A stretch of 57,863 bases of DNA, from assembly GCA_010093745.1 (NCBI GenBank), contig MU005960.1, positions 372,636-430,498 of the forward strand, written 5' to 3'. This document shows, one piece after another, positions 30,013 to 54,958 of this stretch. A program made the position numbers and the translations under genes. The first letter of the stretch is position 1. Each line of letters opens with the position of its first letter. The DNA comes from Piedraia hortae CBS 480.64. Taxonomy: Eukaryota. The notes beneath the pieces were generated by a model. The model made no database searches. It saw nothing but the letters and a program-made list of their open reading frames with translations, and had not been told where the DNA came from.

Positions 30013-31850
30013 ATGTCTCCCTCCGCCAAACCCCAGAGCCCCGCCGTTATGCCTGCTGTTACTACAGTTGCGCCGAAAACTAAAACGACAACCACTGAAC
30101 ATAAAAAGTTAGGCAAAGTGCATCGCAGATCGCGTTCTGGTTCGTTTCAAACCTGTAACTTCTGTTGCCATAATTAACGTTGGCAGGTTGTTTTACATGT
30201 CGACTTCGCCGCAAGAAGTGTGAGGAGGGAAAGCCAGAGTGTAAAGCCTGTCGTCATCTCGGTCTCCAGTGTGACTATGCACGTCCTATATGGTGGGGTA
30301 CTGCCGAGCAGAGGCGTCAACACAAGGAGATTATCAAAGCAGCTATAAAGAAGTCCCAGTTGAGCAAGAAGGCGGCAAGCCATGCTATCCCAGATTTCTC
30401 TGCTCCTCGACTGTCTTCGGCTGCTCCGCCAAGCTTATGCTCAGCACCCACGGCCAGCGACCCTTTTACTTCCCATCCCCACAGCCGCTCTTCTGCAAGC
30501 CCTTCGGCAGATTGGGACCCATATCTCTTTTCCGAAGGTCTAGTCGACCCTTCGGCCTGTTTTCCTCTAGAAGTCGATGTCAAAACAGAGCACCACGTCC
30601 TTGTCAACGGCGACAATTGGGTCAGCTATCCTTGGTCGGAGCCAGAGTTCGTGACAGAGCCCAAATTTTTCCCAGAGCCCCCGGTCATCGAAGGTCCATC
30701 AGTTGAACATTGCGACCTCTACCTGCACAACCAGTTTTTGGAAACCGTTCAGCCTCTTCTCTTTCCCATCCTAGACTTGGACCAACCCGATTCTGCCTCC
30801 GGCCTCATCCTCCCCTCTCTAGAGTCAAACTCTGCCTATCGACATTGCTGTCTCAGCGCTGCAGCTGTCCATCTCAAAGCTACCCGCCAAGTTGCCGCAG
30901 AACTCATTGACCCAGACATCTCCCGGCACCGCTATGCTGCTGTGTCTGAGCTTTGCAACGCTCTTGAGCACGACAACGATCACACTCACCTGCTCGATGC
31001 CACTCTTGGAATGATTTTCTTCAAGTGTTCCGTCGGCAGGCACGACGAGAACCTGATGGACATCCCGTGGCACCAGCACTTTCAAGCAGCCGTCAACTTG
31101 ATCGGAAAACTGGACCTGCCTATATCTTCTCCCGTTCCCACCAGCATGTCCCTGGCTGCGTGGATTGACATCATCGGCGCAACCATGCTCGGCCAGGCAC
31201 CCGCTTTTGCCGACTCTTACCGCAACCTCAATCTCGTCGGGGGCTCAGCTGGCCTGTCTAGTCTTATGGGCTGTGACGACTCGGTCATGTTCATCATCTC
31301 CGAGATTGCCTGTCTTGATGCCACCCGCGAGTTCCTTGCCGAGGAGGCACTATGTGCCTACGTCGAAACTCTCGGCCACGCAATCGACGACACAGAGCCT
31401 GGCCCTGGCGCTGTTCAAGGCTGCTTTACACCTACTGGATCGATTCGGGCAGACCAGCTTCGCATCAACGTCACGGCCCTCTTCCGCCTCGCAGCCCGAA
31501 TCTACCTCTGCTCCCTCGTGCCCGGCTTCGACCCCCGGCAAGAAAGCATGTGCCGTCTTGTGGCCTCCTTCACAGACCTGCTCACCTACATCCCCGAGGG
31601 CCCTCTGGGCTTTGATCGCTCTCTCGCTTGGCCTTTCCTCATTACCGGTGCACAAGCAACCAACACCTCCTCCTTCCGAGCTGTGCTCAACGAAAGGTGT
31701 CGACGCATGGGTGATGCAGCACACTTTGGCTCTTTTGGCCGTGTGCGCCAAATCCTTCATGATGTCTGGCACTCGTTTGACGCGACTGGTTCGCCCAAGC
31801 GGTGGCAGGATGTCATGAGAGATAATGGTTGGGACGATTTACTGATCTAA
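30013..31850 (+). CDS. pro1: Zn(II)2Cys6 developmental transcription factor, Pro1/NosA/RosA family; exons 30013-30139 and 30187-31850, 596 aa
   Basis: HRRSRSG|CFTCRLRRKKCEEGKPECKACRHLGLQCDY, DIPWHQHFQA, AWIDIIGATM, LMGCDD, GFDRSLAWP, WQDVMRDNGWDDLLI. 47-nt intron. Confidence 0.88.
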
Positions 31851-36070: not shown

Positions 36071-37687
36071 GCTGGCGGCGTTGTTGGTGGTTGCGTCTGT
36101 GTCGCGGGCCTGGGCCACATGACGTCACGCTGCCGCATTGTTGTCGTCCGCGGTGAGTCGTCCATCTGCTCATCTAGCGACTCTCATGGGCCGAACGGCC
36201 AAGCCAGCCATAGTTTTGGTTCCATGAAGCTGGTGTGTATGTATTACTACGAGAAGCTACACATTTCTGGGAAAGCTGGTAGGTGCGTCGATTCCTGTTC
36301 CTTTGTCTTCCTACCTACGCTTCCATCTGCCTTTCCCCTTGTAGAAACCTACCAACGTTCCATTCAATCATTCTTATCTTCTCTTTACCACTGGTCCTTC
36401 ATTTTCCACCAAATGATTCGCTCATGTAGCTTTCGCTTCCAGCCGGATACATCTGGGCAAGGAAGAGGCCAGCCAGCATTTACGCCTTCGCACCAGGCAC
36501 GCCCAGCACCGGCTCGTACAGGCCTATCTCATAGGCAAGGCAGTCACAAAGATACTGTCAGAGCAACGAGTGACTAAATGTCGGGTGTATACTCGCCGTG
36601 ACCATCGAACTTGCAGATTTCTCGGACCATCTTCATCGATGACTTGTGTTTTGTTAAAATAACAAAACAGCATCAAACGGTCGTGGTTGAATGCTTTGGG
36701 AGAGTTGCGTTTCGTTTGCAGGCTGGCCGTTGGACCTGAAACGAGATCATAACAAATCCTTGTGGTGGCGCTGAGGGGGGCATGGACAATTACCATCCCC
36801 ACGTTTGCACATCCAACCACGTGCAAGTGCGCCGCCGAATAGAACTGAGATTGCCCCATGGATGTTTCGCCATGATTCATCAATATCCACGTCATGGGAT
36901 GGCAATTAATCACAGTAGCTGCCGACCCAAAGCCACGGAATTAAGATCGGCCAGACCCAGATCCTAGCGTACATCTGGTTTGGTCGCAACTCACATCGGC
37001 GGCCTTAGGACGATGCGACGATCATTCGATGTGGAGTTCCATTGTGACCGGGACTGCTTTGACCATCCCTCTGGGGCTGTTTCGACCAGAGACTGAAGAT
37101 GAAAATATTAGATGGATATACCATAGTTTTTACTCTATTTGAAGTAGGGCGGCACCAGTGAGCTGAAGCGAGCTCGGCCTATACAATGGTTTAGCCCATC
37201 TTATTCACCATACTCAGGGATACAAGTTCCATAGGAGAGTACGCTGCTTGTTACAGGCGTCAGACATGCCCAGACGTTGAGTGGGTCCGACGCCGCGGGC
37301 CGATGTTACCCGCCTTCCCGGACCCACCTTGCCTCGACTTCACACAAGCACCTTCACTCTTTTCGAGACCGACATGGCCATGGATGCCTCCCTTAAAGCC
37401 CCCAAGTGGTCCCTGGTCATCTTTGACCATACCATCGGCCAGATCATGGCCTCCAAGTGTCGATAACAGATTATCTTATTGGACAAGAACTGTAGCAGCA
37501 TCACTGAGCCACACTTGGACGAAGAGGTAGGGTAACGTCTCGCAGTCTCTCGTTCTGCGGTATATTAGACTAGCTCCTCCCTCTCATGATTTCCTTTCCA
37601 TCGCATTCTCTCAACAGTCTTTCATTCGCTACAACTTTCATTCACTTACCCACTCGACTTTTTTGCCCATCTTTACTTCCAATCAAA

Positions 37688-39320
37688 ATGACGAAGCTCA
37701 TCTTCCTTACTGCCCTCCTCACCTCGACCGCGCTGGCGCGTCCTTGCGGCACGGCGCCGTTAGTAACCCCCAGCAAATACGTTGAAGCAAATCTAACTCC
37801 AAAATAGCAACTCGGTCGCACCATCCTCTGCCGGAGCTGCTCCCTCTGCTGGTCAGGGTTGCGGCGGGTGCGGTGGTGCTGGGTGCCCTAGCTGCGGAGG
37901 AAACTCTGTTGGCTCGCAGAAGTGCGGCTCATGCGGCGGTGCTGGATGCCCCAACTGCCCAGGCGGCAACTGTGCCGGCTGTGGTGGTGCTGGTTGCCCC
38001 AGCTGCTCTGGTGGCATGGTCAAGCGCACGGTCAAGCGCAATGTTGCCTACAAGAACAACTGCGGCGGATCTGGCTGCGGTAGCGCTGGCTGCCCGAGCT
38101 GCGGAGGCGACTCTTCCTGCGGCTCCTGCGGCGGTGCTGGCTGCGGCAACTGCGGAGGCATGAAGAAGCGTACCATCAAGCGCTGTGGTTCGTGCGGTGG
38201 CGCCGGCTGCCCCAACTGCCCCGGCGGAAACTGTGCTGGCTGCGGCGGTGCTGGATGCCCGAGTTGCTCCGGCTCTACTGGTGAACAGAAGTGCGGCTCG
38301 TGCGGCGGTGCTGGCTGCCCCAACTGCCCAGGTGGCAACTGCGCCGGTTGCGGTGGTGCCGGCTGCCCCGGATGCTCAGGCTCTATGAGGAAGCGCACCG
38401 TCAAGCGCTGCGGCTCGTGCGGTGGCGCCGGCTGCCCCAATTGCCCAGGTGGTAACTGCGCTGGCTGCGGCGGTGCTGGATGCCCGGGCTGCACCGGCTC
38501 TGCTGTCTCAAGCGACATGGGCTCCCAGAAGTGCGGCGGCTGTGGTGGTGCTGGATGCCCGAACTGCCCCGATGGTAACTGCGCTGGCTGTGGTGGCGCC
38601 GGATGCCCGAGCTGCTCTGGCTCTATGAAGAAGCGCACCGTCAAGCGCTGCGGCTCTTGCGGTGGTGCCGGCTGCCCCAACTGTCCCGGCGGAAACTGTG
38701 CTGGCTGCGGTGGTGCTGGCTGCCCAAGCTGCTCTGGCTCTGATTCCTCCAGCCTCATCGGCTCCCAGAAGTGCGGTGGATGCGGTGGCTCTGGCTGCCC
38801 TAGCTGCGGTGGTGACTCCTCATGCGGATCCTGCGGCGGTGCCGGCTGCCCCAGCTGCGGTGGTATGGTCAAGCGCACTGTCAAGCGATGCGGTGGTGCT
38901 GGCTGTGGTGGCTGCGCTGACTGTCCCGGCGGCAACTGCGGTTCCTGCGGCGGCGCCGGCTGCCCTAACTGCTCTGGATCGACTGCTGCTCAGAAGTGCG
39001 GTTCATATGGCGGTGCCGGCTGCCCCAACTGCCCAGGTGGCAACTGCGCCGGTTGCGGTGGTGCCGGCTGCCCCGGATGCTCAGGCTCTATGAAGAAGCG
39101 CACCGTCAAGCGCTGCGGCTCGTGCGGTGGTGCCGGCTGCCCCAACTGCCCCGGCGGAAACTGTGCTGGCTGCGGCGGCGCTGGCTGCCCCAGCTGCTCT
39201 GGGTCCACCGGTGAGCAGAAATGCGGTTCCTGCGGTGGTGCTGGCTGCCCCAACTGCCCAGGTGGTAACTGCGCTGGCTGTGGTGGTGCTGGCTGCCCCG
39301 GCTGCTCCGGCTCCTTTTAG
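37688..39320 (+). CDS. Secreted Cys/Gly-rich repeat precursor with six KR-T(V/I)-KR sites (Kex2-processed repeat protein-like); exons 37688-37758 and 37808-39320, 527 aa
   Basis: Signal-peptide-like MTKLIFLTALLTSTALA. A canonical 49-nt intron (GTTAGT...CTAAC...TAG) puts the leader in frame with the CxxCGGAGCPxC repeat ORF. Variation between repeats falls mostly at third codon positions. Confidence 0.85.
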
Positions 39321-39679: not shown

Positions 39680-42499
39680 TCACTCATCAAACACAACCCT
39701 CCTCCTCCTACTCTTCTTTTTCCTCTTCCCCTCCCCCTCCCCATCACCCTCTTCCTCCTCAACCTCACCATCTTTTATCTTCTTCTTCTTCTTCTTGTTC
39801 TTCTTATTCCTCCCCACCCCACCCTCATTCCCATCCCCCTCATTCCCAGTAAGATCATCCCTCTTCTTCCGTCTAACCTTCCTCTTAACAACAGTCCCCT
39901 CCTCATCAAGCGACCCAATCATCTCCCGTTCCCTCTGCATCATCAATCTTGTCTTCTCAACCTCCCTTACAGCCTTCTGCAAATCATCCTCAACAACATA
40001 TTCATCCCGTCGAACAGGCAACACGTCCTCGTCGAGGGAGAGGGATGATAAGCCTGAGGAATCTACCCCTAAAAGACCCTTGGGTTTTTTAGAAGTGGGC
40101 GCTGAGGTGGTTCGGGAGGGGGGTGCTGTTCCGCTGAGGGTTTTATCGAGGGTTTCGTCTGCAAGGACTTCGAAAATCTTTTTTGGACGCTTGAGTTTTG
40201 ATGAGGGAATTTTTGCTTCGCTTTTCGCTTCGCGGGGGAGGTCTATGATTGGGATTGAGTCGACGTCGTTCCCTTGATTGACAGGGGAGGCATCAGGATC
40301 GATGTAGAATGGATCGTCGCGGTTACGTTCCCTGCGTTGGGCTCGTAGGCGGTTGCGCTCTTCGAGGGTTGGGAATGCTGCCGTTGCTGCCTGTTGGTCG
40401 AGGGATTGGGATGCGGTTAGGGACAGGTTTGTTTGGGTGCGATCGTGGTAGAATGAAAAAATTCCGTCGTTGTCAGTTTCGGGATCGGTGTCTTCGTTGA
40501 TATCAGCGCTTTGGAGGAGGAAGGGGAGGTCGGTGTTTATGGGTTCGTCCAGGTCGATTTCTGTGGGTGGGGGGACTTGTTTTAAGGCGGTTGGGGCAAC
40601 GGGGTTGAGCTCCATGCCGGTGAATAAGGTGGGTATGGCTTGGGTTAGGAGGAGAGGGGTTTCTCCGCCTACAGGTTGGTTGGTAGCTGCTTCGGATGCG
40701 AGGCGCATTAGTTCCAGATATTCTACGGAGCATTCTTGTACGCTGAGATCGCGGTGCTGCGTTAGAGGCTCGAGGAAGTGAACTATGCGGGCACAGAGGA
40801 GGGTTATAGAGGATTGAGACTCGGATGTCCATGACTTTGGGGTTTTGGTGAGGGCGGAGAAGATTTTGGGTGCGGCGCGGACGTAGCTGGCTAGGATATC
40901 TGAGGGATAATCATGGATTGAGGGATGGACTAGGGAGTTCAGCACGGCTTCTGCGTCTGGAAGCATCGATGCGAATTCTCCAGAGACAAATGCAGCTGCT
41001 GGTAGGACGCCTCTGGCTCTGCCGTCGCGCTGTTCTAATATCAAAGACTGGGCAGCTGCCGCTGCTTCCGGTCGTAAGGCCTTGACTCTGATGGCAATAT
41101 TGAGCAGTTCAGCGCCAATTTTGGCGGCTACATCAGAGCCTGTAGCTGGACAGTGTCGTACTAGCTCAACCAAGACTTCGAGGTACCACTCAAAGTCGGT
41201 TAGTTGTGCATAGTTGTCTCGCGAACACATTGCGAGTATCCGCTCAATCACAGCAGTTCGATAGTCGTCGGGCAGTGGGTTTGCTGTGGCCTTGATTGGT
41301 GACTCCTCGTCTTCGTCTTCTGACACGCTAGATTGATTTGTCTTCCTATCTTCTGTTGGAGGCTGAGTCCGTAGTTGCCGCAGTAATCGATCCACCACAG
41401 TTACGAGGTTTCCGGAGCTAATCATGCCAACAACCAAGTCCAGGGCACGCATGCGAATGGACACATCCGCATCATCAATGCACTCGAGGATGACATCGTG
41501 TTGGTTAGCCACCAGATCTGGGTGGGTAGCGGTGACGCGGGCCATTGTAAGCAGAGCCACATAGCGCAGGTTGCGGTCGTTTTCAGAGGCAATCATGGTC
41601 CTCAGCTTTCCAGTGCACAGCCGAGCCACCTGATCGCCTTCAACACTCCCCTCGGCCGCATCCAGCACTCCACCTTGAATTATACCATGTATACATTCGT
41701 ACATCAGACTCATTGCCGTCGTCTCACGTATGAGATTCGTCAGAGGAGGAATCAGCTTCTTAACCAGTCGTGGTTCTAGGGGAATGAGGACAGAAAACAG
41801 CTTGACTATTTTGATAGCCATCCAGTTATTTTTGCCAAGTTTGAGAAGTTCAAAAAATCGAGGAGCCAGAGCGAGAAAGTCCTGGGGTCGGCGCCAGCCA
41901 AGCTCGCAGATAACGTTGATTACAGCAGCAGTAACGCTGGGGTCTTCGTTTTCGTCCATCAGTTGCTCCTTGATCTTGGGCCATGACAGGCGTAATGTTT
42001 CAGGACAGGTCAAGGCTAATCGGTAGAGCGCGGCGACAGCCTTTTTGCGCACATTGGGACTGGAGTGAGAGAGCTTGGGCAGCAAGTCGGTCAACAATGA
42101 GTGAGCCATTGACGGGATGAGAACATGAGGTGTAGCGGTGAGTGGAAGGGACATGGTCACTCGATCGGGGCTGTTAAGGTCCTTCTTAAGCAGATTCTCA
42201 ACCAGCATGAGGACTTCAGTATCGGGGCGAAAGGTTTGTACAGCTGCGAGATATCCCACACGTTTATGCCGATATTTGGCGCTACTCATGACCTCGAGGA
42301 CGTGAAATGAAGCCCAGGACATGTCGTGACCGTACATTTCCAAATACACTAACTTCAAGAGTGCCGTGGCCTTGACGTCCATGTCCTGACTGCGGATTTC
42401 GGTGCGACACTCTCGCAAGGAAGACTGCATATACTCCGCTTCATGGCCTTTGTGTGACCGGAGTCCGCGGATTAGCCGCTCAATGTCTTTTTCGAACAT
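39680..42499 (-). CDS. APL5: AP-3 complex delta adaptin
   Basis: MFEK...LIRGLR, YLEMYGHDMSWASFHVLEVMSS, KRVGYLAA, NNWMAIKIVKLF, DFEWY, DDPFYI. 939 aa, no introns. Confidence 0.95.
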   Translation of the reverse strand: MFEKDIERLIRGLRSHKGHEAEYMQSSLRECRTEIRSQDMDVKATALLKLVYLEMYGHDMSWASFHVLEVMSSAKYRHKRVGYLAAVQTFRPDTEVLMLVENLLKKDLNSPDRVTMSLPLTATPHVLIPSMAHSLLTDLLPKLSHSSPNVRKKAVAALYRLALTCPETLRLSWPKIKEQLMDENEDPSVTAAVINVICELGWRRPQDFLALAPRFFELLKLGKNNWMAIKIVKLFSVLIPLEPRLVKKLIPPLTNLIRETTAMSLMYECIHGIIQGGVLDAAEGSVEGDQVARLCTGKLRTMIASENDRNLRYVALLTMARVTATHPDLVANQHDVILECIDDADVSIRMRALDLVVGMISSGNLVTVVDRLLRQLRTQPPTEDRKTNQSSVSEDEDEESPIKATANPLPDDYRTAVIERILAMCSRDNYAQLTDFEWYLEVLVELVRHCPATGSDVAAKIGAELLNIAIRVKALRPEAAAAAQSLILEQRDGRARGVLPAAAFVSGEFASMLPDAEAVLNSLVHPSIHDYPSDILASYVRAAPKIFSALTKTPKSWTSESQSSITLLCARIVHFLEPLTQHRDLSVQECSVEYLELMRLASEAATNQPVGGETPLLLTQAIPTLFTGMELNPVAPTALKQVPPPTEIDLDEPINTDLPFLLQSADINEDTDPETDNDGIFSFYHDRTQTNLSLTASQSLDQQAATAAFPTLEERNRLRAQRRERNRDDPFYIDPDASPVNQGNDVDSIPIIDLPREAKSEAKIPSSKLKRPKKIFEVLADETLDKTLSGTAPPSRTTSAPTSKKPKGLLGVDSSGLSSLSLDEDVLPVRRDEYVVEDDLQKAVREVEKTRLMMQREREMIGSLDEEGTVVKRKVRRKKRDDLTGNEGDGNEGGVGRNKKNKKKKKKIKDGEVEEEEGDGEGEGKRKKKSRRRRVVFDE

Positions 42500-44758: not shown

Positions 44759-46012
44759 CTAGTCGTGATTATACTCGCCGTCCGAGTCTTGATCTGCTTG
44801 TTCATCGTCATCAATCTCGCTTGCTTTTCGCTTCAAATTCGCGTTCTTGCCATTCTTGTTTTCTTTGCGGATGGGAATCTTTACGCCTTGCTCGGCAAAA
44901 CATCTGCTGAGAGCTGTAGACTCGATCACGCCGGGGAATTTCTTGGCGGAGTAGACTCGTAGCACGTCGGAGTAACACCAGGCCAAGATTGGAGATCGTC
45001 CCGTGTTGAGAATGCCATCCGGTCCGCCGAGGTCGATGAAGCTTGCTTTAAGGCGGTAAGTGCCCTCGGTGCGGATCGAGAGGTCCTGCAACACAAACCA
45101 AAAGCCTTCCTGGCCGTCGAGCGCGCGGAGCTTGTTGGCGCAGACGGTCAAGGTGCCAAGCAGGTTCTTGGTAAAGAGGTTTGTGGGTGCCGCGTTGGGA
45201 GCCGTGTAACTGTAGCTGTACGACGATGTTGCCGCTGGCGCGATCCGAGTGTGTGCGGGGTTGTAGGGGTGATTGCGGGCAGCCGATAATCGGCGGGGTT
45301 GGTGGCCATTGCCGTAGTCATATGGCGCCGTGGCAGACAGGGCCGGGTGGCTGGAGCTGGCCGCATGGCCCGAGGTTTGGACGACATTGGTTTTGTTCGA
45401 TCCAGTTTCGTCAAAAAGATCGACCATGAGTACAAACAAGTTGCCGTCCACTTCCGCCGGGTTGACCGGCAGACCTGTCCGTAAGTCGTTGATCTTGACC
45501 TGTATACACGGCGGCGGAGTGACGGACCTCCGGTCCTTGTCGCCGTAGCCGCACATGCGCGCCCGCAGCGGCTGCTGTGCGATGTGGAGGGAATAGCTGT
45601 AGCGCTCGTCGTGGCCGTCATAGCGCATTTGCATGGTGGGGTTAGCGGGCCTGCTCTGCCGGACGTGGCGGGGCGGCGGGGAAGCAGCTGAGGCAGAGGC
45701 AGCGCTGCGGGCGTGGACGGTGTGATAGCTGACAGACGATGATGACGGATAGCCGGCAAACGAAGATGACTGATACCCGTTCTGGTTGTCAAATGCCACC
45801 TCCGAGGGCGGCAAAGGTTCCAGCGAATGGTGCGGCGGCAAGCTTGAGCCAAATCGGTAGACGTGCGGGTAGGGCTGATGCTGCTGATATTGTTGAAATT
45901 GATGTTCGCCGAGGGGACTGTAACCAAAATGATTGGGGTAATTCTGAGGATATGCCATGATATCGCTGCCGTGAGCGTGGCTGTAGAAGGAATTAAATAG
46001 GGTAGAAGTCAT
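44759..46012 (-). CDS. velB: Velvet-family regulator, VelB-like (split velvet domain)
   Basis: QQPLRARMCGYGDKDRRSVTPPPC, then an insert, then FTKNLLG...WFVLQDLSIRTEGTYRLK and VYSAKKFPGVIESTALSRCFAEQGVKIPIRK. Confidence 0.87.
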   Translation of the reverse strand: MTSTLFNSFYSHAHGSDIMAYPQNYPNHFGYSPLGEHQFQQYQQHQPYPHVYRFGSSLPPHHSLEPLPPSEVAFDNQNGYQSSSFAGYPSSSSVSYHTVHARSAASASAASPPPRHVRQSRPANPTMQMRYDGHDERYSYSLHIAQQPLRARMCGYGDKDRRSVTPPPCIQVKINDLRTGLPVNPAEVDGNLFVLMVDLFDETGSNKTNVVQTSGHAASSSHPALSATAPYDYGNGHQPRRLSAARNHPYNPAHTRIAPAATSSYSYSYTAPNAAPTNLFTKNLLGTLTVCANKLRALDGQEGFWFVLQDLSIRTEGTYRLKASFIDLGGPDGILNTGRSPILAWCYSDVLRVYSAKKFPGVIESTALSRCFAEQGVKIPIRKENKNGKNANLKRKASEIDDDEQADQDSDGEYNHD

Positions 46013-48087
46013 GCTGATTCAGTGCACAGCAGTCAACGCTGGTTATCTGGCGGAGCTGGCCAAGACTTTTAACAGCTACGGATTTTGCCAAGCTCCCGGA
46101 AAGAGCCAATCGGCGTGCGGCGGATTCGGCGCTATATTGGGTGAGGCGGACAGTACGGGAAGCCGCTCGCGTAGCACGACAGGCGCAAAGGCCCCAGGAC
46201 CCTGACCATATAGTTTTTTCTCCGTCGCGAGGCTGTGAAGATTTACCGCAGCTGTCAAACCCACCGCACGGTCAGGCCTCCGTTGCCATTACAGTTCCCA
46301 CGTGCTACTTCCACCCCCAATCCCTTAATACCTCTCCGAGCCTCTGACCATCCGGCTCCCCTGGCGTGCGCTGCGTGAATGCCGTGCAACAGAATGACAT
46401 TCATCCGATGCATCTACCCCTTGCCTCGGCCGGGGCCTGGTTCGCCAGCACCCAGCATCCAGCACTACTGCATGCTCGCGGTCGACGATGGCTGTGCTCG
46501 AGGAGCATGACTAGGAAACACTAAGCAAGACTATCTAGCCAATGAACGAGCTCCTGAACACTAAGATGGAGCCAATGACCACCAACTGGCAGCTAAGTGA
46601 AGAGGAAACATCCATCCGTAAGGCGGTTGAATTCACAGCTCACGAATCGCAATAGCCCAATCACAAATGACATGAGCTTGTGATCATGCCGACGATACGT
46701 CAGCCGTAAACCACTCGAATTTTTTTCGCATTATGTAACCCTATCACAACAACAGTTGATCACAAGACGTTTCGCCATCGCGATGCAGATCCATATCAAT
46801 AGGCCCTGCAGTGAACATGGTAGTGGCAAAAGGACGAGCCGATATTCTAGCTAGCCGCATACGCGTGTATTTCTGCTCATCGAAGATGTCCAGGCAATGA
46901 ACTTTGCCCGAGCTTTACTGCCTTATCGAAGTGATCTTCAGCGAAGATGTTGGATGTTCTCCAATGGTGTACGTTATTTTAGAGAGCATGCTCGTCGACC
47001 GGGTAGAATGTTGTGGAGTGCATTGAGCTGGACAAGGGGCGGCCCAAATTGATGTTACGCAACGCTTGCTGCGTACGTCGTGCATATAGATGGGCAGATA
47101 TATAGACGGGGATTGTATATACGTTTCAGACGTACCCAAGTCGTTGCCGAATCCCGTGGTCCAGAACTGTGGTTCACATTGGGATCAACGAAGTGACTGA
47201 GCGAATGAAATCAACTTCCGTACCTGGTTCGTTGGGCAGTCATGTTGCAGAATCTCGGAGAATTCGACCATTCTCAGTGCCGTCGATACGAGTGGCTGTC
47301 CACGAAGACCCGCTGAGAGACAACGCTACACTGCTGGAGGCAGGTTGCCGTCTGTCATGTATCATGTACGGCCGACTAGGAACGTGGTTTAGAATTTCCT
47401 CTAGTTGCACGGCGCATTTGAGAGCCTGTGTGCGTCACGCACAAGCCGCGGAAGACGCGTTTTCATTGAAAATGCAGCCGGTGTTCCGTAAGAGGCTGAC
47501 CAAGACACTTTATAGATTAAAGGCCATTCGAGTCGCCTGACTGTTCGAGAGATACATCTTCGAGTTGCCAGTGAAGGTATAGTCACAAGACGTTGTGAAG
47601 CAGGTGGTCCGCTTGCCAGGCGTTATAAGACCAAGATAGGTCAGGGTAACAGCAGTGTCCATCTAGCTAAACTGATCATGATCCATGAGCACCAAGATCA
47701 ATTGGTTAATTGTGGAGCAAGCCCACTCGCATCGATAAGACTGGACCCGGGTGTGACACTCTATCGAGATCTAAAGATAGTGAAGAGCATGACTGGCACG
47801 AGGCCAATATACCGTTGGAAGCACGCACTTCTGTGGAAAAAGCGAGACGAGTTGCTCAGGTCTGGGAAAGAGGCCCCTCACTTCAACGAGACACCCCTTG
47901 GGCCCAGCCAAATCATGGGCTTTAAGCCAACCTGTAGATGTGAGGTCAACGACCTAAAGTCCGACCAAAACGTCGGTCCATGCGCTGGGAACGGGGGTTT
48001 CACGATCGTTGCGGTCGACCTGTCTAGGGTTAGGACCGAGACAACACCACAACAACTCCCACCAAAACTAACCAACCAACCCCCATC

Positions 48088-52980: not shown

Positions 52981-53512
52981 ATTGCATGGTTTGCAAGGAT
53001 GTAAACAATATATAATCTTCAAGCACCACAGATAAACTCCCCACGAACGAAGAACGAGACAACTGTAGCACAAAGGTGGCTTCCACGACGCAAGCACGAG
53101 GATTAAGGGCAAAGGAATTTTTGGATGCAAGTGAAGCGGTGATGCATGTTCAGCTGCATGAAATGTCTACCTGGATGTTCAAGGGGGCAGCATGCCTCGA
53201 CCACGAAACACATCCGCTCAAGGCAGCTGAATCTCAGGCACGGAAAGAAAGAACAGACAAGATGAGCAAAGACATCCACAGCTGATGTCGTGCTGCGGGT
53301 CCGCGGTTAGCGTCGGAGAACCAAGTTTATATACGGACACGATCCACATGTCAACGTCTCCAGTCAAGACATTGTCAGGACGCGTTGCCCCGAGCGTGTT
53401 GCAACAACAAGAGAAGCTCGAGTCTTGCATCTGATCCATGGGGCAACAACACTAGCCACGCACCCTTTTGCCTATTTTTCCGCGGACTTTTTCTCCATCT
53501 TCTTGTACAAAC

Positions 53513-54958
53513 ATGGCGATTCCTAAACTGGAGGACTATGACATTTCGGCCAAGAATGGATTTCTGCCCGCTGAGCCGCCGCTGGAGGCCCTTCCGGACG
53601 CTTATTACCAACCGTGGGAGGATGTGATGAAGAACTTGCATGGACTCATTCTGGGGAAGAGGCTTCATAAGGAGGTCAATGGCCTGCCTGTGTTGTCGAC
53701 GGATCGTTTGGTGGGAGAGCCGCAGTGGAGGCGTGCGCATAGCATTCTGGGGTTCATCGTTCATGCGTATATCTGGGGAGGAGAGAGAGCCATGGAGTGG
53801 GTTCCACCGCCGATTGCGATTCCGTTCCAGGAGACGTCAAAGCATCTCGGCCTCCCGCCCGTCGCTGCCTACGCTGGCCTTGTCCTCTGGAACTGGCGCC
53901 CGATTTTCAAGGACGAGGAAACGGTCGACTTTATCGACAACCTCGATATGATCCACACCTTTACTGGCTCCCTAGACGAGAGATGGTTCTACATTATTAG
54001 TGTTGCAATCGAGGCTCGCGGAGCGCAATTGATCCCCTTGACGCTGAAAGCAATGGAGGCAGTGGAGCAGAACGATCCCGACACCGTCGCAGCCTGTCTG
54101 CGTTCTTTCGCCGAAGGGTTAGACGAACTTGGTACCATCCTCCACCGCATGAACGAAAGCTGCGACCCTCACGTCTTCTATCACCGCATCCGTCCCTACC
54201 TCGCCGGAGGGAAGAACATGGCCCAAGCCGGCCTCCCCAACGGGGTCGTCTTCGACAACGGCGGGCCGATGAACAAACAACGCCATGTGCAATACAGCGG
54301 CGGCAGCAACGCCCAGTCTAGTATCCTCCAATACTTCGACATCGTCCTCGGCGTCACCCACCGCCCAACAGGAACCAAACCCTCCACCGAAACCACCACC
54401 CAGAACGACACCTCCACCCAGACCACCTCCGAGAAGTCCAACAACTTCATCCACGACATGCGGACGTACATGCCCCGCCAACACGCGCGTTTCCTCACCG
54501 ACATGGAAAATTCCGCCAACATCCGCCCCTACGTCCAAACCCACCCCACCAACCGTGCCCTATCAGTCGCATTCGACACCAGCGTCGCGATGCTAAGCGC
54601 ATTCAGAAGCAAACACCTCCAAATCGCCTCCCGATACATTGTAATCCCCAGCCAAATCCACAACAAACAACCCAACCCCCGTCCCATCGGGCCCGCGAGA
54701 CCTCTTACCCCGAGATCGGAGATTATATCTCAAGATGTAGCCTCGCTACGCGGAACGGGAGGGACGAGCCTTATGTCCTTCCTCCGCCAGGCGAGAGACG
54801 AGACGAATGAATCTGCTGTTGAGGATTGGACGAGGGAGGTTTTGAGTAAGAAGGGTAGGAAACCGAAGAAGGAGGTGGATAAGGTGGAGGTGGAGAAGGT
54901 ACAGGGACTGGCGAATGTGTGGCAGATGGATACGGGTGGGGGGCTTTGTCATTTTTGA
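53513..54958 (+). CDS. BNA2: Indoleamine 2,3-dioxygenase
   Basis: NGFLP, AYIWG, LVLWNW, TFTGSLDERWFYIIS, FYHRIRPYLAG, YSGGSNAQSS, MRTYMP, FRSKH, RGTGGTSLMSFLRQARDET. Confidence 0.93.
   Translation: MAIPKLEDYDISAKNGFLPAEPPLEALPDAYYQPWEDVMKNLHGLILGKRLHKEVNGLPVLSTDRLVGEPQWRRAHSILGFIVHAYIWGGERAMEWVPPPIAIPFQETSKHLGLPPVAAYAGLVLWNWRPIFKDEETVDFIDNLDMIHTFTGSLDERWFYIISVAIEARGAQLIPLTLKAMEAVEQNDPDTVAACLRSFAEGLDELGTILHRMNESCDPHVFYHRIRPYLAGGKNMAQAGLPNGVVFDNGGPMNKQRHVQYSGGSNAQSSILQYFDIVLGVTHRPTGTKPSTETTTQNDTSTQTTSEKSNNFIHDMRTYMPRQHARFLTDMENSANIRPYVQTHPTNRALSVAFDTSVAMLSAFRSKHLQIASRYIVIPSQIHNKQPNPRPIGPARPLTPRSEIISQDVASLRGTGGTSLMSFLRQARDETNESAVEDWTREVLSKKGRKPKKEVDKVEVEKVQGLANVWQMDTGGGLCHF

Follow-up and report, generated by a model that had tools for sequence, protein, structure and literature searches.

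A predicted Kex2-processed precursor of cysteine-rich repeat peptides in the black piedra fungus Piedraia hortae, and its possible part in nodule attachment to hair

What use would a fungus of human hair have for a gene whose predicted product is little more than an array of one Cys- and Gly-rich module, interrupted at regular intervals by paired dibasic sites? The question is raised by the interval 37688 to 39320 (plus strand) of a 57,863-nt stretch of the Piedraia hortae CBS 480.64 genome (assembly GCA_010093745.1, contig MU005960.1, positions 372,636 to 430,498 of the forward strand), which was analysed as a whole and is referred to here as the window; all positions are counted from its first letter. 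Judged by its architecture, the gene encodes a Kex2-processed repeat protein (KEP), that is, a precursor of a known type that would give rise to new peptides. In the terms of the survey that describes them (PMC6339444), KEPs combine a signal peptide with internal repeats that have Kex2 sites between them; here, a signal peptide is predicted by manual rules, the repeats are near-identical, and KR sites lie between them at six of six boundaries. A preliminary description of the locus had presented it as a candidate new system. With regard to the precursor this no longer holds, its architecture being that of the published KEP class, while the claim survives for the peptides, for which no family was found. 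We consider it highly probable that this is a real, secreted KEP-type gene. As to function, we infer that a thiol/disulfide-based extracellular material or hair adhesive is the most likely one. For the whole statement, a secreted KEP with a cement or adhesive function, we would put the probability at roughly 0.4.

The predicted precursor is 527 aa long (C 100, G 159, S 59, A 47, P 37, N 26, F 2, Y 2, H 0, W 0). Cys, Gly and Ser together account for 318 of the 527 residues (60%), and large hydrophobic or aromatic residues are almost absent. The strict form of the module (pattern C..CGG[AS]GC[PG].C) occurs 22 times, three degenerate copies (CGGSGCGSAGCPSC, CGGAGCGGCADC and CGSYGGAGCPNC) were recognised by eye, and 47 CxxC pairs are present in all; CGSCGG opens ten of the 22 strict modules. 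The natural unit is a 28-aa block, CGSC-GGAG-CPNC-PGGN-CAGC-GGAG-CPxC, which has four CxxC pairs spaced 4 residues apart. Two such blocks and a Ser/Thr-rich linker of 8–13 residues ending in QK make up a full unit, with 16 Cys. Five units of 68–74 aa are 81–99% identical and form a tandem array with a period of 225–240 nt.

A KRT[VI]KR spacer is present at each of the six unit boundaries (aa 96, 144, 219, 299, 379 and 454), preceded every time by a conserved G-[GS]-M. The pieces between the spacers are 95 (78 without the signal peptide), 42, 69, 74, 74, 69 and 68 aa long and contain, in that order, 13, 8, 16, 16, 16, 15 and 16 Cys. A double cut at each doubled site would free a TVKR or TIKR spacer, and after Kex1-type trimming the mature peptides would carry a net charge of 0 or -1, with Cys as the predicted new N-terminus in five of the seven. 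The figures of the preliminary description were reproduced throughout: about 25 copies of the module (22 strict plus three degenerate), ~100 Cys in 527 aa with few aromatic residues, seven peptides of the lengths just given, and six spacers whose starts (38022, 38166, 38391, 38631, 38871 and 39096) were all exact. An AlphaFold2 model of a 69-aa unit, made from a seven-row internal alignment, was too poor for a fold search (mean predicted local distance difference test, pLDDT, 46.5; predicted template modelling score, pTM, 0.22). The predicted parts of the gene are as follows.

37688 to 37758, plus strand: exon 1, 71 nt; start codon context caaaATGa; encodes MTKLIFLTALLTSTALA and then RPCGTA
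37759 to 37807, plus strand: intron, 49 nt; GTTAGT donor, CTAAC branch site at 37793-37797 (10 nt before the acceptor), TAG acceptor
37808 to 39320, plus strand: exon 2; short pro-region, repeat array, TAG stop at 39318-39320
37739 to 38021, plus strand: peptide 1, 78 aa across the intron; pro-like N-terminus RPCGTAPNSVAPSSAGAAPSAGQG, then three modules; 13 Cys
38022 to 38039, plus strand: spacer 1, KRTVKR; double dibasic Kex2-type site, preceded by GGMV
38040 to 38165, plus strand: peptide 2, 42 aa, 8 Cys; divergent, begins NVAYKNN
38166 to 38183, plus strand: spacer 2, KRTIKR
38184 to 38390, plus strand: peptide 3, 69 aa, 16 Cys; two of the 28-aa blocks given above, linked by SGSTGEQK
38391 to 38408, plus strand: spacer 3, KRTVKR
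38409 to 38630, plus strand: peptide 4, 74 aa, 16 Cys
38631 to 38648, plus strand: spacer 4, KRTVKR
38649 to 38870, plus strand: peptide 5, 74 aa, 16 Cys
38871 to 38888, plus strand: spacer 5, KRTVKR
38889 to 39095, plus strand: peptide 6, 69 aa, 15 Cys; Tyr in place of one Cys
39096 to 39113, plus strand: spacer 6, KRTVKR
39114 to 39317, plus strand: peptide 7, 68 aa, 16 Cys

Does the array code for protein in this frame? All 22 strict modules lie in the frame of the gene, and none was found elsewhere in the six frames of the 57.9-kb window. Among the eight 28-aa double-module blocks (28 pairs), codon differences are synonymous in 296 cases and non-synonymous in 29, and the variable alignment columns are distributed over codon positions 1, 2 and 3 as 2/2/24. 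Because the array is confined to one frame and the variation between its repeats is mostly synonymous, it is not a product of chance. Peptides 3 and 7 are 99% identical as protein, with a proportion of synonymous differences (pS) of 0.47, a synonymous divergence (dS) of 0.74 and a non-synonymous divergence (dN) of 0.013. The repeats are under strong purifying selection, which holds Cys and non-Cys residues alike. They are also old and have not been homogenised, since units 3 and 7 are near-identical as protein and differ at 47% of their synonymous sites. The KR pairs survive synonymous change in all six spacers (CGC/CGT/CGA; ACG/ACC/ACT). Antisense open reading frames (ORFs), such as the one at 38048-38989 on the minus strand, were rejected because the variation sits on plus-frame third positions; they are by-products of composition. 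The choice of codons is strongly biased, in that TGC accounts for 88 of the 100 Cys codons (for 21 of 44 in four genes nearby), AAG for 22 of 23 (109 of 173 in the same four genes) and GGG for 3 of 159 (39 of 187). In filamentous fungi, a codon bias this strong usually accompanies high expression, and the gene is probably highly expressed.

The array would be linked to a predicted signal peptide by way of a short first exon. The preliminary description had claimed that a canonical 49-nt intron joins the two, and donor, branch site, acceptor and frame all fit that model. The intron was inferred from these consensus signals and from restoration of the frame: read through without splicing, exon 1 meets a stop at TAG 37805-37807, which is the intron's own acceptor, and removal of the intron puts exon 1 in frame with the repeat ORF ending at 39320, giving a repeat exon of ~1.5 kb. 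The predicted signal peptide, which depends on the intron and was judged by manual rules for the n-, h- and c-regions, has 17 aa (37688-37738), with K3, a hydrophobic core of 14 residues (LIFLTALLTSTALA; Kyte-Doolittle maximum 2.54) and A-L-A at -3/-1 before R18. Contig depths from two public runs are also at hand. In run X2, which is guessed to be RNA, the 74-nt bin holding most of the intron has a depth of 15 and the flanking bins have 122 and 185; in run X1, which is DNA, these three bins give 24 as against 36 and 21. Contig depth cannot rank the parts of one gene, and these values were not counted as evidence of splicing.

Cleavage and splicing are both predicted from the sequence, and the gene might instead encode a single, uncleaved 50-kDa Cys/Gly-rich protein, secreted or of the cell wall, in which KR-T-V-KR would be basic linkers. 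If the intron were kept, the product might also be a cytosolic protein of 434 aa from M 38016, where an ATG opens an ORF of that length. Both versions appear very unlikely. The double dibasic sites stand at six of six boundaries and have been kept through synonymous changes, M 38016 is the conserved spacer Met of GGMVKR and no distinct start, and the intron is canonical in donor, branch and acceptor and restores the frame to the signal peptide.

How far does the likeness to known precursors extend? In the surveys that catalogue them (Le Marquer et al. 2019, PMC6339444; Umemura 2020, PMC7329392), KEPs, including the alpha-factor precursors, likewise begin with a signal peptide and carry KR sites between tandem, near-identical units. 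The P. hortae precursor would be expected, as they are, to be processed by Kex2 and Kex1 on its way through the secretory pathway. Its units, however, are long (68–74 aa) and have 16 Cys each, and its sites are doubled as KR-T-V/I-KR, whereas in other KEPs KR is followed by XA or XP Ste13 dipeptides. The term KEP denotes an architectural class and not a homologous family.

Disulfide-rich peptides are common among antimicrobials, and the P. hortae peptides might be bioactive in the manner usual for KEPs, either as antimicrobials directed at hair and skin microbes or as signalling or pheromone-like peptides. According to the survey, most KEPs are thought to yield signalling or effector peptides (PMC6339444). 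We nevertheless find such a role quite unlikely here. A net charge of 0 or -1 and the near-complete lack of hydrophobic and aromatic residues are unlike cationic amphipathic antimicrobials, 68–74 aa is long beside the pheromone-like repeat peptides of the survey (PMC6339444), and the supplements of two KEP catalogues, in possibly incomplete files, contained none of the motifs CGGAGC, GAGCP, CGSCGG and KRTVKR.

A signal peptide followed by KR-separated repeats is likewise the plan of the dikaritin-type precursors (ustiloxin, phomopsin) of RiPPs, which are peptides synthesised on the ribosome and modified after translation. Dikaritins are described as having short Tyr-containing cores and clustered modifying enzymes (PMC6339444), whereas the full P. 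hortae units are without Tyr, save for one C-to-Y change. A clustered oxidase of the DUF3328/UstYa type was not found in the ORFs scanned. More broadly, no oxidase, RiPP-type methyltransferase, DUF3328 protein or protease was present among 26 chosen ORFs (of 100 of at least 120 aa) in the window, nor among 37 ORFs of at least 70 aa within ~6 kb on either side of the gene. The reading of the locus as a RiPP cluster was rejected on this ground, and the earlier statement that no modifying enzymes are encoded nearby holds for both sets of ORFs.

Do the peptides themselves belong to a described family? The search query, P0001, was the exon-2 protein (37809-39317, translated). It matched no Pfam family at E <= 10, and the seven units gave only two Pfam matches, both at chance level and neither to metallothioneins. 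Among PDB sequences, P0001 matched nuclear-receptor zinc fingers only (E 0.016-0.97), and a profile of the seven units gave a single match at E 0.8. A word-index search of 5.8 billion clusters returned nothing at 'near' or 'shorter' lengths, the ESM Atlas held no usable match to the whole protein or to one unit, and none of 290 pattern matches in metagenome contigs searched by protein was confirmed. A degenerate DNA pattern for CPNCPGGNC found two metagenome loci, each within a bacterial gene and in a different frame from it, and these were dismissed as chance. With phmmer, 1.84 billion representatives yielded four matches only (E 2.5e-5 to 1e-4), all of them unrelated CxxC-repeat proteins. 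The emptiness of these searches is not an artefact of low-complexity filtering, because the phmmer self-match scored 937 bits and 0 of 200 shuffles matched. That no described family is recognisable, as claimed at the outset, was thus borne out by the Pfam, PDB, cluster and representative searches; in the literature, covered mostly as titles and abstracts, there was no description of this protein or of a similar secreted Cys-rich polyprotein.

Two of the four weak matches, P0002 and P0005, are DnaJ_CXXCXGXG proteins. A third, P0003, has 768 aa, a signal-peptide-like N-terminus, more than ten CPNCPSGKCPWCHG repeats and Q/E/N-rich spacers, and it matched no Pfam family. Its CPNCPSGKCPWCHG repeats echo CPNCPGGNCAGCGG, having the C-x2-C-x4-C-x2-C rhythm and the CPNCP start in common with the fungal module. 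As far as the sequences go, this likeness is at the level of the motif only, and P0003 may represent another type of secreted CxxC-array protein.

Exact look-ups in the protein collection failed for the AP-3 ORF next to the gene, for the 434-aa intron-less ORF and for the indoleamine 2,3-dioxygenase reading frame farther downstream. The failure for AP-3 is explained by a public model that differs by 9 aa; the other two were not checked in this way. The public protein set seems to lack the gene and any paralogues, because AP-3 delta is present there and nothing resembles the gene, which was probably missed in annotation owing to its short first exon and low-complexity repeat.

What, then, could such peptides do for this fungus? 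P. hortae is the agent of black piedra and is described as forming dark, stone-hard nodules that are firmly attached to human hair (PMC7082219). Scanning electron microscopy (SEM) of a colony shows a secreted microfibrillar matrix that glues the hyphae together; the authors equate it with the 'cementing substance' of the nodule, find it resistant to potassium hydroxide and state that its composition is unknown (PMC11551259). Because P. hortae cements its nodules onto hair, the odds tilt towards a crosslinked matrix over a metal chelator. A thiol/disulfide material is favoured because a cement of unstated composition holds the hard nodules firmly to a substrate rich in disulfides; because the Cys/Gly/Ser composition resembles that of ultra-high-sulfur keratin-associated proteins (KAPs), with CGSCGG in common; because Rep1 offers a case of Kex2-cut peptides forming a fibrillar adhesive layer; because oxidation is to be expected of Cys residues that pass through the secretory pathway or lie on hair open to the air; and because, in a minimal genome, the gene is at once old, constrained, lineage-specific and optimised in its codons.

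Two of these comparisons carry limits of their own. Rep1 of Ustilago maydis is described as a secreted precursor that Kex2 cuts into about ten peptides of 34–53 aa, which make up a fibrillar surface material mediating attachment (PMC3133707). There is no sequence similarity between Rep1 and the P. hortae precursor, and assembly of the P. hortae peptides would be via disulfides. Repellents are amphipathic and amyloid-forming and are not known to be Cys-rich. The KAP5 and KAP10 proteins of the mammalian hair cuticle are dominated by Cys, Gly and Ser, as is the P. hortae precursor with its repeats of the same composition, and KAPs constitute a disulfide-crosslinked matrix. For example, a repeat peptide of sheep KAP5.1, SKGGCGSCGGSKGG, which is assigned to the exocuticle, contains CGSCGG (PMC3107965). 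Unlike the P. hortae precursor, KAPs are intracellular keratinocyte proteins with neither a signal peptide nor Kex2 sites. The likeness is compositional, a matter of convergence or mimicry for which homology is not claimed; horizontal transfer of a host KAP gene was rejected, as no homology was detectable in Pfam or among the 1.84 billion representatives.

In the mechanism that we propose for a disulfide-based cement, the precursor would enter the secretory pathway by means of its signal peptide, a kexin of the Golgi would cut after the KR pairs of the six KR-T-(V/I)-KR spacers, and a Kex1-type carboxypeptidase would remove the basic tails. Seven uncharged peptides of 5–7 kDa would then exit the cell, five of them starting with Cys, with ends in ...GSM, ...GGMV or ...GSF. 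Being small and soluble, they could oxidise and crosslink with one another, and they could also join the ultra-high-sulfur proteins of the hair cuticle by thiol-disulfide exchange. Crosslinked in this way, the peptides would contribute to the fibrillar cement that hardens the piedra nodules and fixes them to the hair shaft.

A different use of the same residues would be extracellular metal binding. In such a secreted metallothionein-like system, Zn(II) or Cu(I) would be held in thiolate clusters by the CxxC-x4-CxxC arrays; the role could be a scavenging of trace metals from hair similar to that of zincophores or chalkophores, or a buffering, at the surface of the hyphae, of metals that are toxic. 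Cys makes up 23% of the units, which are without His and have hardly any aromatics, and such a composition of Cys, Gly, Ser, Ala and Asn resembles that of small fungal Cu-metallothioneins. The strict conservation of all non-Cys positions suggests a defined coordination geometry, and the module matches the CxxCxGxG zinc-knuckle signature, as do the DnaJ_CXXCXGXG proteins P0002 and P0005. Classical metallothioneins are single-copy peptides of small size that stay in the cytosol and are not known to have a signal peptide or a polyprotein precursor, whereas the P. hortae units are predicted to be released from a secreted one. A precedent at the cell wall is the metallothionein-like Mmt1 of Magnaporthe, as it is described (PMC9036806), and Mmt1-type metallothioneins and the P. 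hortae units are alike in high Cys, in CxxC pairs and in lacking His and aromatics.

Against metal binding, no metallothionein or zinc-finger Pfam family was matched even at E <= 10, and the oxidised state to be expected of Cys, both during secretion and on hair in contact with air, is unfavourable to thiolate clusters. The 1.1 kb upstream of the gene held no strict Mac1-, Ace1- or Zap1-type motif, with two relaxed TTTGC.C[AG] matches only. With respect to the DnaJ CXXCXGXG repeats (PF00684), CGSCGGAG fits the CxxCxGxG signature, but the profile was not matched even at E <= 10, and the P. hortae protein is predicted to be secreted and is not a chaperone domain. Its CxxC pairs, 4 residues apart, are also far closer than those of DnaJ-type fingers, which are more than 10 residues apart. 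We regard both the metal-binding system and the roles proposed for it as possible, with the odds well against them.

The CxxC pairs might also serve in redox chemistry. The peptides would then be secreted partly reduced and serve as stoichiometric thiol reagents, shuffling or reducing the disulfides of cuticle keratin and KAPs so that the hair surface is loosened for penetration, or would act as an antioxidant shield. CPxC and CGxC types, which resemble the active sites of oxidoreductases, are among the 47 CxxC pairs; the hair substrate is rich in disulfides, and the fungus is described as living on and under the cuticle (PMC7082219). We judge this unlikely, as there is no thioredoxin-like fold and no family match, and it is hard to see how the thiols would stay reduced outside the cell in the absence of a regenerating system. 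The redox reading also overlaps with the crosslinking model, from which it differs in the end state and not in the chemistry.

A number of points weigh against the disulfide-based hair cement or the gene model beneath it. The 37758/37808 joint is absent from the contigs of the public runs X1 and X2, neither of which is on record as RNA. A second ATG, in frame at 37586, could put 34 residues before the signal peptide, although its context, with C at -3, is weaker than that of 37688, with A. No KAP or keratin match was obtained, neither as a Pfam family nor among the four matches from the 1.84 billion representatives, a library whose mammalian content was not established. The CGSCGG match may be a compositional coincidence, involving as it does six residues of two Cys/Gly/Ser-rich proteins, and the overall composition fits fungal metallothioneins as well as KAPs. 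Conservation of all non-Cys positions of the 28-aa block suggests a precise fold or a metal-cluster geometry, which would fit at least equally. For 7-kDa pieces cut from a structural protein there is no obvious use, and the matrix seen by SEM could be polysaccharide.

Two more specific versions of the cement were considered. In the first, a host-mimicking, self-curing glue, the kexin-released peptides would copy KAP5 chemistry, including CGSCGG, diffuse under the cuticle scales and weld by thiol-disulfide exchange; we look on this version as doubtful. In the second, the N-terminal Cys, a 1,2-aminothiol, would attack a thioester at the cuticle surface and strip the lipid layer by an acyl transfer resembling native chemical ligation. 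A thioester may link 18-methyleicosanoic acid to the cuticle surface, as the hair literature has it (PMC3107965). This last proposal is extremely unlikely.

The surroundings of the gene are regulatory or housekeeping in character, comprising a Zn2Cys6 factor, syntaxin-5, the adjacent and convergent gene for AP-3 delta, and a velvet factor.

30174 to 31850, plus strand: Zn2Cys6 transcription factor
44759 to 46018, minus strand: velvet-family regulator
53456 to 54958, plus strand: indoleamine 2,3-dioxygenase

Nothing ties the velvet regulator, the Zn2Cys6 factor or the indoleamine 2,3-dioxygenase to the repeat gene. The AP-3 delta ORF (39680-42499, minus strand) agrees with the public protein of P. 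hortae CBS 480.64 at every one of 930 aligned residues, the alignment having a single 9-aa gap, and its next best relative is 58% identical; by this measure, P. hortae sits on a long, sparsely sampled branch. The gap corresponds to VHFLEPLTQ, nine residues that the public model is without and that the uninterrupted 939-aa ORF reads in frame. Here the public model may be in error, because the 27-nt intron that it implies is implausibly short. On the other side of the gene, a 1,422-nt contig of run X2 (36302-37723, depth 62) spans the whole interval from syntaxin-5 to the gene; if X2 is RNA, this may reflect a long 5' untranslated region or another transcript upstream.

The same two runs contain contigs that match the window from 37680 onwards and, ahead of this, carry 255 nt of 5' sequence that differs from the window's while loosely resembling it. 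A second locus of the same organism thus shares 37680-37723 exactly and differs in its 5' flank, and this foreign flank was not found anywhere in the window. Since the shared part leaves out the sequence upstream, conservation starts 8 nt before ATG 37688. Other contigs depart from the window at 39199-39203, after CPSCSG, and continue into GGMKK(R)CGSCG. Judging by these contig sequences, the genome seems to hold, at another place, at least one paralogous locus whose signal peptide is the same and whose junctions have a single KR. TTTGCCCA, which we take to be one base off a Mac1-type copper-response element, occurs in the window at 36804 and at 37662, the latter 26 nt before the ATG, and again in the 5' flank of the paralogue; this may be chance.

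With 16.95 Mb and 7,572 genes, P. hortae is reported to have the smallest genome among 101 Dothideomycetes compared (PMC7082219). Because the repeat gene is old, constrained, codon-optimised and lineage-restricted in the smallest of these genomes, it is a prime candidate for niche adaptation, and comparative studies would have overlooked it because it is apparently missing from the public P. hortae protein set. If the peptides bind metals instead, the gene would encode a secreted polyprotein metallothionein, for which there is no described counterpart in the literature searched. If they are a cement or a hair anchor, they would provide a testable molecular basis of piedra, stand for a bioadhesive of a new, thiol-curing kind, and show a microbe converging on the structural-protein chemistry of its host. 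In the more specific version of a host-mimicking, self-curing glue, no disulfide-curing peptide adhesive would have been described from a fungus before, and the piedra 'cement' would gain a molecular identity. The nature of that cement is an old question, and the gene makes it directly testable.

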